This document shows positions 21,001-24,000 of a stretch of 64,000 nt of DNA, piece by piece. The stretch lies in the NCBI RefSeq assembly GCF_030384885.1, contig NZ_CP128614.1; one strand, given 5' to 3'. The position numbers are program-made. This stretch comes from Escherichia coli. GTDB taxonomy: Bacteria; Pseudomonadota; Gammaproteobacteria; Enterobacterales; Enterobacteriaceae. Positions within the stretch are counted from its first letter, which is position 1. Each line of letters opens with the position of its first letter.

Positions 21001-24000
21001 AGATTGGCCGAAGATTTACCTGAAGATTATAAAGTTATGCAACAACAATCTGATGATTGGTCATTCCCTACAATTGATTCTCAGTCTATGCCTCCAGAGT
21101 TTGTGCGGAAAAATGGTATATCTAAAATAAAAGAGATTGATTTAGAAATGGATATTGGTGAAATAACTACATCGTCACCTACGATTTCAAGTCAAACAAA
21201 ACAACTAAAAATGGGCTCAATGCATCAACAAGTGATAGATGCATTTTTATTTTCAATTATTTAATTTTTTATCGTATGCCGTAAACGGTTTGAAGAGTGA
21301 ATTAACGGCATTGATTCAAGTTAAAACTGGCTAGTTACGGCCAGTTTCCCTAGGGAACTATAGTTTTTATCTATACAACGTGAAGCTAAAGAAGAGTGAA
21401 TGATTGCCTTTTTTGTAACTAATTTTATTTTTAACTCCTCAAGCTTGTCTTTTAATGATTTATTTTCCTCTTCAAGAAATGATATTTTTACTAGTGATGC
21501 CCTTAATAAGTCATTGAGCTGGTGATGTTCTGAAGCCATTTGACGGAGTCTTTTTCGAGGGGGCTGAAAGCGTTCTGCAGGCACTGTTAGTGGTATAAAA
21601 TATGCCCACGACTGTATTCCTGTTGTGTGGTAATTCCTCAATGAAAAGAAGTGAATGCTTATTTTATTCTTACTATCTGGCCTTGTTTTAAAGCTTTTAT
21701 CTCTTGTTCCAGCGCTTCAATACGTGAACGTGCAACCCTCAGCGCATGGGAGAGCTGATGATGTTCAGCCGCCATCACTTCCAGACGACGTTTCATATCA
21801 GATGCTTTTACACGGTACTGAATTTTCACTTTACGCTCTTGGTTAAATTTATGTCGCAGGGCTTCCTGTGACTGATGAGTTAGCCTGCCCTGAGGGGATA
21901 TTTTTAACCGCAGAATTTCCTCCTGGACGCGTGACTTAAATGCCCCGTAGTAGTAACAGGTTCCGTTTCCCAGCCCGGCCTCCTCTTCAACAGCACGCAC
22001 CGACAACTTTCGGTTGTCAGGGATACGTTTTGTCTGACCATCAAGGATCCGTTGTAGTGCAGCTTCAAGTTTAAGGAGTGTATTTTCTGATTTGCTCATA
22101 CGCCTGTCACCTTAATGGGATGTTCATATGTGTCATAGCCAATCCCATGATCCTGCATAACCCGTTCCGCAGCCCGGATTTGAGTGATACAGTGGGCATA
22201 CTCACTGATGCTTAGATCCGTCTGTTGCTGAAGATACATTATCAAAGCATTATGACGTTGCTGCCACCACATGGCCTTATCCGTATCGATAATGCTTCCA
22301 CCGCTACGACAATCCACGCAGAATGCAGGGTTGACCACACCATCCATATCGCAGTCATAGCCGTTTTTGCAGTAACTATGTAGCGTTCCATGCAAAGTAA
22401 GTCGTTTTTCCCTGACCAGTCGATAGAGATTATCCCAGCTACTGTAGATCACAGGCTTATCATTACGCATAGCTAGAATGGCTTTGCCAAAACTTCCGCT
22501 GAGTTGACTATCCCCGTTAAACCAGCTGTCAAAAAGACTAGTTGTCTGTTCGAGCCTTGCTTCATTCAGTAATTTAATCAGTTCGCTGTCCACCTGTATT
22601 GATTGTAGCCGTGCTTCAACAGCACCGTTCCCATACCATTCACTCATTCGCAGGCTGAGGTGTTTAAACTGTTGTTTGATTGCGATGGGGTGTCCGAGCT
22701 GGTTACGTACGGCAAAGCAGGCGAAAGTTCTTCGAAACTGATGGGTTAAAAGGGGCCAGGCCTCTCCTGTTCTGATCTTATCTTCTATAGCCCCCCTGTC
22801 CCGAGGGTTAAGCTGACGGCACTCTGCGAGTGCCTGTTTATCAACAATAGCACCCACATGTCTGGAAAAATTTTTTAAACGGTCGTTCCACTTGCTGCGT
22901 GAAATGAGGACAGGCAGGTTTTTTCTTTGGTACTGGCTGAGCCACAGATTTCCTGCTGTCTCAGTAAGCGTATCAGACTGCCCTGGGTCGTTGCTGTGAA
23001 CCGCTATTTTTAACAGCTGTTCACGAGCACACGCGCTGAGAGCCGTCGCAAGCGATATGGCTTTTTCAACAATAGGGCTTGCCAGCCATTCTTCATTTTT
23101 TTTCCCGGCAGCCAGTTTGTGGGTTGCTGCGCTTACCGAGTGAAAATCCTGTCCATTAATGGTGTAGGTGTGAAAACTGTCCACATGCAATTCAAATATT
23201 TCGCTGACTCTCATTCCTGTGAAAGCACCACAACAAATAAAACAGGCTGCCTGAAGTTGAGCACGAAAACTGACGAGCCAGTTACCGTCTGCTGCGCTAC
23301 TGGGCAGGAGTCCTGTTCCGGTGAGATGGTTTTTGATTAGGGTATTTTGCGACCGGGGTGTCGCTTTATTAATTTCTTCTACATATTCTTTTGAACATAA
23401 TTTCCCCTGTCCGTTAGTCAGCCATGTCCACTTACCTGTAAGTATTTTATAGTCAACAACGGCACGCCCGATATCATAATTAGACTGCAGTTCACGTTCT
23501 AGCTGGGCTAGTGTTTCTCTGTGGGGCCATGCAAGCTCGACAAGTCTAACGGCTTCTCCATAGAGTATATTTGCTATTGCCTGGGGGATGGCCAGGGTTT
23601 GCCTGTGTTCTGCTTTATTTTTAGCTGACAGTTTTTTGGCTGTCTGTTTGTAGTTCAGCTGTGGCAGGTCAAGCTGGAAAGGAAGCCATGAATTTAGTCT
23701 TTCGACTGACTGTAGTGCAGAGAAAATCAATTCAACAGTTCGCTTACTAAAGGCTTCACGTTCGATATCGTTTTGTAGCTTTTGCCATATCTCGGGTTTA
23801 TTGAAGTCAGACAGGCACGTGCTGCCACTATGCAAAAGCGTTAATAAACTCTTTTTTAACCCTAAATTGAATCGGGAGGTCAGTGTTGACAGCTTGCAGT
23901 CTTTTCCGGAGTGATAATTTTGCTCAAATATCCATCCATATACGATAAGCTTCGCCTGAAGGAGAAGCGCCGGAGCGGACTCCAAATAGGTAAAGTTAAA

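Follow-up and report, generated by a model that had tools for sequence, protein, structure and literature searches.

ORF106, a reading frame of 106 codons at the end of a recombinase operon in an Escherichia coli plasmid, is very probably a pseudogene scar: the dead 3' end of a foreign srap gene (srapB), left by the fusion of an A-type recombinase module to cargo associated with B-type elements. The scar lies inside a mobile element inserted in an IncHI2 plasmid. The features are collected in Table 1; positions are those of the window, that is, the whole stretch of 64,000 nucleotides of contig NZ_CP128614.1 that was analysed, and the loci used for comparison carry numbers beginning with L.

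Table 1. Features of the inserted element and of the srap scar (window positions).
Feature	Position	Strand	Description
Whole insert	8720..29083	-	SE-EasCA1043 (20,358 bp) plus 6-bp footprint; in an IncHI2 gene of the PAPS-reductase family
Left-end motif C	29060..29083	-	TACCATGACACGTTAGTGTAGAAA; adjoins plasmid backbone
intA	25966..27345	-	Tyrosine recombinase, 459 aa; Pfam Phage_integrase, E 2e-9
tfp	24225..26000	-	591-aa ORF (578 aa in other calls); recombinase fold, without catalytic motifs
intB	22096..24258	-	Large tyrosine recombinase, 720-aa ORF (706 aa in other calls)
Resident srap (srapA)	21659..22099	-	A-type, 146 aa, ATG start; WP_023309561.1
A-type 3' tail after srapA	21541..21658	-	Source of ORF106 codons 1-33; collinear with L005 10442..10559
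srapB' remnant	21384..21542	-	Last 53 codons (106-158) of a B-type 158-aa srap allele
ORF106	21321..21641	-	106 aa, TTG start; chimeric reading frame
Hairpin	21323..21348		AAACTGGCC-N8-GGCCAGTTTT; between convergent srapB' and helicase genes; possible shared terminator
Remnant-linked block	18902..21264		ResIII helicase, VspR-like protein, HTH regulator; 91% DNA identity to L001-L004
ResIII helicase	19870..21264	+	Pfam ResIII match
VspR-like protein	19313..19882	+	VspR_N/VspR_C domains recorded on identical copies
HTH regulator	18902..19213	-	Pfam HTH_3 match
Secondary insertion	17200..18895		1.7 kb; frameshifted BOF/YgiW-like ORFs, HupE/UreJ-like piece, hipB, hipA 5' stub
CBASS operon	12249..16846	-	Patatin CapV, DncV-like cyclase, E1/E2 Cap2, JAB Cap3; collinear with L005 and L012, 94%
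Right-end motif C'	8726..8752	-	TTTCTACACTGTAACAGTGTGGTAGTA; imperfect inverted repeat of C; same right end in L012
6-bp footprint	8720..8725	-	GTTTGT; same 6 bp as to the left of C in chromosomal copies (gor attL)

The insert amounts to 20.4 kb. In the element-free IncHI2 plasmid L014 the two flanks adjoin and both are 100% identical to those in the window. The inserted element is itself 100% identical to chromosomal copies, including that of NZ_CP034336.1, which Idola et al. (2023, Mob DNA 14:7, Additional file 8) list as SE-EasCA1043 of Enterobacter asburiae CAV1043. This record (L052) is 100% identical to window positions 29083..11659, and the accessions and coordinates of Srap and Tfp agree with the listing. 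Judged by this identity, the insert is the already catalogued strand-biased circularizing integrative element (SE) SE-EasCA1043. The right boundary agrees with the published one once the 6-bp footprint is left out, whereas on the left the published length of 20,288 bp implies a boundary 70 bp inside the motif-C end seen in the plasmid; the catalogued copy is located at gor, the copy in the window in a gene of an IncHI2 plasmid. Idola et al. give only the coordinates of SE-EasCA1043, and their main text does not mention its srap fragment, mosaic origin or CBASS cargo. Among 72,556 PLSDB plasmids the element is present in one, pMY490-mcr-9.

The ends are those of an SE. More than 25 other SE loci have motif C at a distance of about 100 bp upstream of intA, and the reverse complement of C' reads TACTACCACACTGTTACAGTGTAGAAA; the two motifs form imperfect inverted repeats at the termini. 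The attR of the window reads C' + GTTTGT + GACTAC and the attL at gor reads GAAGA-GTTTGT-C, while the attB of the empty plasmid is CTCAACC|GACTAC, with no target duplication. The donor-site 6 bp that lie left of C were hence carried to the new attR, as is typical of SEs. The usual chromosomal site of the element is the 3' end of gor, where identical copies are found in many Enterobacter chromosomes, and it is the footprint GTTTGT that links the plasmid copy to a donor at this site.

By gene order and homology, the four-gene operon is the intA-tfp-intB-srap core of an SE. ORFs of 459, 591, 720 and 146 codons follow each other head to tail, with overlaps, at the left end. The products of intA, tfp and intB match IntA, Tfp and IntB of the published SE-Pda04Ya311 with E-values of 3e-21, 6e-14 and 4e-31, respectively (BLASTP). 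The RHRY catalytic residues are present in IntA and IntB and missing from Tfp: IntA has the motifs GLRIEE and HDLR, and R350, H506, R509, H533 and Y542 of IntB are invariant in eight IntB sequences, while Tfp has no box-I motif and no Pfam match even at an E-value of 10. A sequence search of the PDB with IntB returned only noise. The 146-aa protein has 509 homologues, which are encoded by the fourth gene of such operons wherever the context could be seen, and homologues of it are entered as Srap in the SE synteny table of Idola et al. (2023). Its AlphaFold2 model (pLDDT 87) shows a helical domain at the N-terminus (residues 3-67) followed by a single long helix (69-141); a Foldseek search of the PDB with this model gave nothing significant, the best weak matches being N-terminal domains of TetR (E > 1).

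Two other families resemble the element. The ginABCD islands (GInt, Bardaji et al. 2017) and TnpABC of Tn554 share with SEs several tyrosine recombinases, a small coiled-coil auxiliary protein at one end of the element and site-specific integration. However, the catalytically dead protein comes third in GInt (GinC) and second in the window (Tfp), Tn554 has no counterpart of Tfp, and GinD is separated from Srap in the published clustering. Since the gene order differs from ginA-ginB-ginC-ginD and the authors who separate the two families file this element under SE, GInt was rejected on architecture and on the catalogue. The Gamma-Mobile-Trio (GMT; Mahata et al., bioRxiv 2023.03.28.534373) islands of gammaproteobacteria are rich in defence systems and have a recombinase module at one end and, like SEs, inverted repeats and a circular form. 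Their module has three genes, gmtY (recombinase), gmtZ (Phage_Integr_2) and gmtX (small, StbA-like), whereas the element of the window has four, including Tfp. This architecture, compared by published description, does not appear to fit either, and the published catalogue again files the element under SE.

ORF106 follows the 146-aa gene after a gap of 17 nt. The initial annotation, which placed both ORFs correctly, took the shorter one for a partial duplicate of the longer, unless the likeness came down to low-complexity coiled coil. Residues 29-64 of ORF106 align with residues 103-138 of the 146-aa protein (18/36 identical, 26/36 positive, BLASTP E 1e-8), with a DNA identity of 52% over these 36 codons. 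The local alignment scores 88, compared to 29 ± 5 for shuffled sequences, none of 2000 shuffles reaching 88, and the outcome is the same when only the coiled-coil parts of the pair are shuffled. The similarity is real and no effect of composition. It is centred on MA(A/S)EHHQL, the most conserved C-terminal motif of the Srap family, in which A110 and H114 are invariant among 22 homologues.

Homology to Srap covers only about 49 of the 106 residues. The family HMM matches ORF106 at profile positions 102-150 of 153 (E 5e-12), so that the two-part architecture of a full-length Srap, as seen in the model and in the family alignment, is absent. The remnant lacks residues 1-105, hence the invariant KLSxRAVEEEAxxGNGxxYY segment and the whole N-terminal helical domain, and ORF106 cannot be a complete Srap. 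Codons 1-33 correspond to 3' intergenic DNA of the closest relative, with no Srap-like signal in any frame of this A-type tail upstream of the remnant. Codons 34 to about 80 are the foreign srap end, and the last ~26 residues are a frameshifted read-through, a 2-nt deletion near the end of srapB' bypassing the original stop. RefSeq annotates only the ATG-initiated, 72-aa part (21321..21539, WP_125387088.1), which is open and identical in at least 193 contigs or assemblies.

The allele to which the remnant belongs is not the resident one. Residues 107-151 of a 158-aa B-type Srap (P0123) match it at 35/45 positions (78%, tblastn E 8e-17), and at the nucleotide level 111 of 135 positions are identical (~82%). 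The remnant is collinear with positions 10319..10477 of L002, a B-type SE. The parentage of the surrounding DNA changes within ORF106: window positions 28125..21541 match L005, a relative of the resident A-type core, at 93%, and positions 21542..18893 match L002 at 91%. The switch occurs exactly at 21541/21542, where the dinucleotide CA is all that is common at the join. In six B-type loci (L001-L004, L013 and L042) an intact 158-aa srap gene is followed by the same helicase/VspR-like/HTH block. L012, on a Klebsiella plasmid, combines a core of a third type with, in this order, IS debris, the final ~30 codons of srapB and the helicase, VspR-like and HTH genes, which are contiguous with CBASS and with the same right end as in the window.

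The initial annotation also saw here a possible old element boundary. The position is indeed a junction between pieces of different origin, internal to the element and located between the recombinase module and the cargo; the element itself runs from 29083 to 8726. Of ten chromosomal contexts sampled, nine have the identical junction, as do the plasmid copies. In the lineage of L058 an IS3 lies inside the remnant and the block is lost down to position 12202, yet this lineage persists.

Nothing similar to positions 20800..22600 was found in complete E. coli genomes, a search with 123 Srap queries detected no second srap fragment outside the lineage of this element, either in 33 further SE loci taken from GTDB representatives or in the loci compared above, and tblastn of B-type Srap across plasmids gave no further C-terminal-only match. 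The ~30-codon piece of L012 is an exception seen at the DNA level only. A 95-aa protein (P0122) was considered as a second, independent truncated copy and rejected: its contigs match the intact B-type gene at 99.7-99.9% identity, and the short form is due to a contig end in one case and to a gene-call artefact in the other.

Very probably, the remnant arrived attached to the DNA that lies 3' of srapB in B-type SEs, namely the convergent helicase gene and the genes of the VspR-like and HTH proteins. In this scenario an illegitimate join with 2 nt of microhomology fused an A-type module, made of intA-tfp-intB-srapA and its 118-bp tail, to codon 106 of srapB, and the recombinase module of the B-type SE was lost along with the first two-thirds of srapB. 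The 3' end of gor is the site both of the mosaic SE (L049-L058) and of B-type SEs (L002, L003), and the two parents may have resided there in tandem, at a common attachment site, before an internal deletion joined them. The fused element stayed mobile, as the gor copies of Enterobacter and the IncHI2 copy described here show. Because neither a genome with a tandem A-type and B-type array nor an intact B-type core with this CBASS cargo was found, we infer the tandem residence and deletion from their products; it is the most likely route, with about an even chance of being the right one. In the outline given by Pavlovic et al. (2004), ICESt1 and CIME elements offer an analogy for it: two related elements at one attachment site undergo an internal deletion and yield a composite that moves as a unit, although such an array of SEs was not observed here and, unlike this type of accretion, SE recombination is copy-out-like and not excisive.

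That the end of the resident gene was duplicated locally in tandem and then decayed was the reading of the initial annotation, and a decayed partial copy of the accessory gene is what ORF106 contains. The two copies adjoin, have the same orientation and both carry the family motif. However, a DNA identity of 52% is about the level expected of unrelated coding DNA, and the B-type allele is far closer to the fragment than the resident gene is; the flanking DNA changes parentage exactly at the junction, and the closest relatives of the resident core, L005 and L006, have no fragment. A tandem duplication is therefore highly improbable. More credible, if still distinctly less probable than not, is that the same scar was formed when an L005-like A-type SE which already carried CBASS received the srapB'-helicase-VspR-HTH segment from a B-type SE, by an illegitimate crossover at 21541/21542 and a homologous one in the common CBASS, with neither tandem array nor deletion. 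In L005 and L006 an A-type core does directly precede CBASS, and this exchange would explain without coincidence why A-type homology stops at the same nucleotide in the window and in L005. On the other hand, in the first 4.8 kb of CBASS the window shares more derived sites with L012 (125) than with L005 (56), with no switch point, and L005 itself looks rearranged: it lacks a left-end motif, has IS debris upstream and contains a filler of 113 bp.

L005 shares the window sequence through the same last nucleotide of the A-type tail and then has 113 unrelated bp before CBASS. Pfam gave no match, and the loci compared no relative, for this filler or for a 90-aa ORF that L005 carries on the other strand. 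Positions 3-84 of the tail are 93% identical between the window and L005, and the last 34 nt about 65%. This divergence and the common stop are explained by neither simple derivation. They hint that the breakpoint may be non-random. It could be, with a small probability, that the point 118 bp past srapA is the vestigial right end of a cargo-less A-type SE, which the recombinases joined to secondary sites, once inside srapB in this element and once upstream of capV in the L005 lineage. A-type homology stops at one nucleotide in these two different contexts, and the tail at ~21600..21575 resembles the end motif, CACTAAC(A)GTG; 18 of 2000 shuffles reach its score, which is tied by two adjacent, overlapping windows elsewhere in the element. 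The high identity of the tail stops right after this stretch. If this were true, SEs would gain cargo by end-directed, aberrant site-specific recombination, and srap fragments would be its footprint.

Whichever route was followed, the product of ORF106 is probably non-functional, because it comprises only part of the long C-terminal helix, has no N-terminal domain and is preceded by no recognisable ribosome-binding site. The remnant may still supply the 3' untranslated end of the recombinase operon and possibly its terminator hairpin. The stem is kept in all four B-type contexts aligned and folds with -13.8 kcal/mol, but a terminator role can only be proposed, since the terminator scan did not call the hairpin and its z-score is only -1.4. 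The dN/dS of the remnant relative to L002 is low (0.16), which is the level that divergence between functional donor alleles would give, although constraint would also be compatible with it; values for the helicase/VspR-like/HTH block are 0.03-0.23.

It seems quite unlikely, if somewhat less so than a tandem duplication, that the 72-aa ORF encodes a functional small coiled-coil protein, for example a partner of the long Srap helix that modulates excision, or one that works together with the adjacent helicase/VspR-like/HTH module. The frame is open and annotated, it retains the most conserved Srap motif, the C-terminal part of Srap is modelled as a single long helix of a kind that could pair, and no terminator is called between srapA and the fragment downstream of it. 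But no Shine-Dalgarno-like sequence precedes either the ATG or the TTG, the C-terminus is out of frame, and none of the 33 other SE loci has a counterpart. In L012 an IS has cut the piece down to ~30 codons, and in L058 an IS lies within it. Identity among the 193 contigs has little weight either way, because the copies are essentially clonal and thus silent on selection.

Downstream of the remnant-linked block, the 1.7-kb secondary insertion is missing from L012, where 62 bp separate the HTH gene from CBASS. It is 91% identical to Klebsiella plasmid DNA annotated as HupE/UreJ, HTH and HipA, and a BOF domain is recorded for it.

For annotation, this means that WP_125387088.1, now a "hypothetical protein", should read srap pseudogene fragment, and that the "recombinase operon" should read core of SE-EasCA1043. 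Within an element that was already catalogued, ORF106 is a recombination scar of an ordinary kind and leaves the current understanding of the SE mechanism unchanged. The locus is a natural composite SE, with the core of one lineage and an accessory block, cargo and right end associated with another. This composite moved from a chromosomal gor site into a conjugative IncHI2 (mcr-9-type) plasmid, carrying with it a CBASS anti-phage system and leaving the 6-bp footprint predicted by the SE model. The case shows that core modules and cargo can be exchanged within this SE clade.

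ORF106, the 106-residue ORF that follows the recombinase operon, had been described in the initial annotation as a repeat of the C-terminal region of the neighboring 146-aa gene. The operon consists of four genes encoding proteins of 459, 591, 720 and 146 aa, srap being the last. Both ORFs lie at the positions given there, and the description holds: BLASTP aligns residues 29-64 of ORF106 with residues 103-138 of the 146-aa Srap (18/36 identities, E value of 1e-8). The pairwise alignment has a score of 88, compared to 29 ± 5 for shuffled sequences (0/2000 as high), and remains above the shuffles when the coiled-coil portions alone are shuffled. 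The match falls on MA(A/S)EHHQL, the C-terminal motif that is best conserved in the Srap family. The similarity is therefore not just that of low-complexity coiled coils.

The proposal that ORF106 arose by tandem duplication of this gene is unsupported, since the DNA identity between the two is only 52% over the 36 aligned codons, whereas ORF106 shares 78% amino acid identity with the C-terminus of P0123, a 158-aa B-type Srap from Serratia and other Enterobacterales. Few relatives of ORF106 came up in a database search: one near-identical metagenomic copy, the rest being the P0123 C-terminus. P0123 and the 146-aa protein are full-length homologues that share the N-terminal KLSVRAVEEEAxLGNGSCYYY segment, and the P0123 gene is the fourth in another three-recombinase operon. 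In six B-type loci (L001-L004, L013 and L042), three genes come after the 158-aa srap: a convergently oriented one for a ResIII helicase, one for a VspR-like protein and one for an HTH regulator. The same three genes lie 3' of ORF106.

According to BLASTN, parentage switches cleanly. The region 28125..21541 is 93% identical to the A-type relatives L005 and L006, whose Srap is 92% identical to the resident one (also A-type); the region 21542..18893, which begins at codon 106 of the B-type srap (srapB), shows 91% identity with the B-type loci. ORF106 is therefore chimeric. Its codons 1-33 are A-type 3' tail, in which no Srap-like signal was detected in any frame, and codons 34 to about 80 are srapB; a 2-nt deletion follows and the frame runs beyond the original stop. 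In a three-way alignment, CA alone is common at the join (21541/21542). The structure shown is an illegitimate join, which fuses a point 118 bp past the A-type srap (srapA) to codon 106 of srapB. The old element boundary suggested initially is thus a seam joining parts of two elements, and a boundary in no other sense.

Coordinates of the features in and around the mosaic (window positions unless a locus is named)
Feature	Coordinates	Strand	Remarks
Resident srap	21659..22099	-	146 aa, ATG start
ORF106	21321..21641	-	106 aa, TTG start
HTH/VspR-like/helicase trio	18902..21264		Directly beside srap in the unrelated loci L028, L033, L034, L037, L038, L042, L043, L045
Secondary insertion, 1.7 kb	18895..17200		BOF-like and HupE/UreJ-like pieces, hipB, hipA stub
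BOF/YgiW-like ORFs	18310..18709		Frameshifted, inside the 1.7-kb insertion
hipB	17297..17593		Inside the 1.7-kb insertion, with hipA start stub and HupE/UreJ-like piece
IS3-family transposase C-terminal stub	28894..29043		Between left end and A-type core
Orphan ParS/Xre-type antitoxin ORF	28450..28698		Between left end and A-type core
113-bp filler	L005 10560..10672 (and L006)		Takes the place of the entire srapB'-helicase-HTH block

From 17199 to 8719, across the anti-phage CBASS operon and up to the right end of the element, the window is 94% identical to L012, a Klebsiella oxytoca plasmid. The core of L012 is of a third type (Srap 42% identical) and is followed by IS debris, ISKpn26, the last ~30 codons of srapB and the same helicase block, which only 62 bp separate from CBASS. 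The srapB end and the helicase/VspR-like/HTH block are thus contiguous with CBASS and the right end, as a single unit that has become joined to at least two foreign cores. In L012, this donor gene appears to have been truncated independently. The 1.7-kb insertion is missing in L012. It consists of decayed genes, 91% identical to Klebsiella/Enterobacter plasmid DNA, and splits the VspR-like and HTH genes from the CBASS operon, which adjoin in L012. Past CBASS there are two more cargo genes (9085..11913). The product of one has 407 aa and a weak Aminoglyc_resit (nucleotidyltransferase) domain; that of the other has 368 aa and no clear domain.

The gor attachment site is also held by B-type elements in other genomes (L002, L003). 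Since A- and B-type elements have this site in common, they could have resided there in tandem, and an internal deletion in the pair would give exactly the observed structure. There is a precedent in ICESt1-type elements, for which tandem accretion and deletion are established according to the reference given in Idola et al. 2023 (PMC10214605). A single illegitimate crossover combined with a homologous one in the common CBASS DNA would be a less probable rival route, which the site pattern does not favor: of the derived sites in the CBASS block, the window has 125 in common with L012 and 56 with L005.

In L005, the closest A-type relative, the A-type tail stops at the same last nucleotide as that of the window and is followed by an unrelated filler, for which no relatives were found. 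Over its last 34 nt, the tail of one matches that of the other at only ~65%. A stretch just before these nucleotides resembles the end motif (18/2000 shuffles reach its score), but of the 345 windows scanned, two adjacent, overlapping ones elsewhere score the same. With the common tail end and this stretch, the breakpoint might, at low probability, be the vestigial end of an element that served in an aberrant site-specific recombination.

No second srap fragment was found in 33 SE (strand-biased circularizing integrative element) loci from GTDB representative genomes, searched with 123 Srap queries; the scar is idiosyncratic to the SE-EasCA1043 lineage. The HTH/VspR-like/helicase trio lies beside srap in 8 of these 33 loci, in two orientations, and is partial in two further ones. 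It therefore looks like a recurrent accessory (regulatory?) module of SEs, not ordinary cargo. No description of it was found in Idola et al. 2023 (PMC10214605).

Most of the 193 contigs that contain the exact 72-aa ATG ORF (part of ORF106), and of the 462 that contain the exact 146-aa Srap, are from Enterobacter. All ten sampled contexts are at rsmJ-gor, with an identical junction in nine of them. In the tenth (L058), the remnant carries an IS3 insertion near 21524, and everything down to 12202 is lost; this Enterobacter lineage (L058 10576..11798) has neither the helicase block nor CBASS. The only plasmid found with the element is pMY490-mcr-9 (NZ_CP053569.1), 99.5% identical to the window. 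Its SE genes are broken into many short CDSs (L010 10767..18091), probably because of assembly indel errors, and its helicase is labeled "diguanylate cyclase". The identity is 99.8% for L007, a contig from a metagenome.

In the AF2 model of the resident Srap (pLDDT 87), residues 3-67 form a small helical domain at the N-terminus and residues 69-141 a single long helix. A structure search with this model gave no significant match; the best weak ones, TetR N-terminal domains, recall the low-confidence match of Idola et al. 2023 (PMC10214605). Of the long helix, the remnant covers only the final third, no Shine-Dalgarno-like sequence precedes its TTG or ATG start, and its end is frameshifted. We therefore conclude that it is non-functional. 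It is part of the 3' untranslated stretch of the recombinase operon and keeps a hairpin (21323..21348) that is conserved between convergent srapB and helicase genes. This hairpin may, tentatively, be a terminator. Compared to L002, the remnant has a dN/dS of 0.16 and a dN threefold that of the adjacent helicase, which fits a donor allele that diverged from that of L002 while functional and gives no evidence of present constraint.

The insert has the SE-defining features of Idola et al. 2023 (PMC10214605). Its core genes are in the order intA-tfp-intB-srap, the first three proteins each match their SE-Pda04Ya311 counterpart, and the catalytic residues are present in IntA and IntB and absent in Tfp. 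Imperfect inverted repeats (C and C') form the termini, with a 6-bp footprint and no target duplication. The start of intA is usually ~100 bp from the end; here the distance is 1.7 kb because the IS3 stub and the ParS/Xre-type ORF intervene; the region 28126..29059 separates the left end from the A-type core. The element is already known: NZ_CP034336.1 2990132-3010419, whose record is 100% identical to the window, is catalogued as SE-EasCA1043, with WP_023309561.1 as Srap (Idola et al. 2023, PMC10214605). The main text of that paper does not mention the srap fragment, the mosaic origin or CBASS.

The backbone is an IncHI2 plasmid; hundreds of PLSDB plasmids match both flanks at 100%, with the flanks adjacent. 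Comparison with pSTM6-275 shows that the element is inserted in, and splits, a gene of the PAPS-reductase family (6887..8842 and 29063..29635). The related SE of L012, an IncHI1B plasmid, is in the homologous gene, about 200 bp away and in opposite orientation. The attR of the window is C'-GTTTGT-GACTAC and the chromosomal attL at the gor end is GAAGA-GTTTGT-C. The GTTTGT beside the right end (8720..8752 and 29060..29090 examined) is the 6 bp left of the element in the chromosomal copies L049-L058 (about 3000..3040), where the left-end motif also restores the final gor codons (…EEFVTMTR*). The common GTTTGT therefore marks the plasmid copy as the descendant of a copy at gor, in keeping with the prediction of the SE model. 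The scar is what recombination between related mobile elements ordinarily leaves behind, and the GTTTGT match is a natural case of the SE "fingerprint/footprint" rule, showing transfer from the chromosome to an IncHI2 plasmid.
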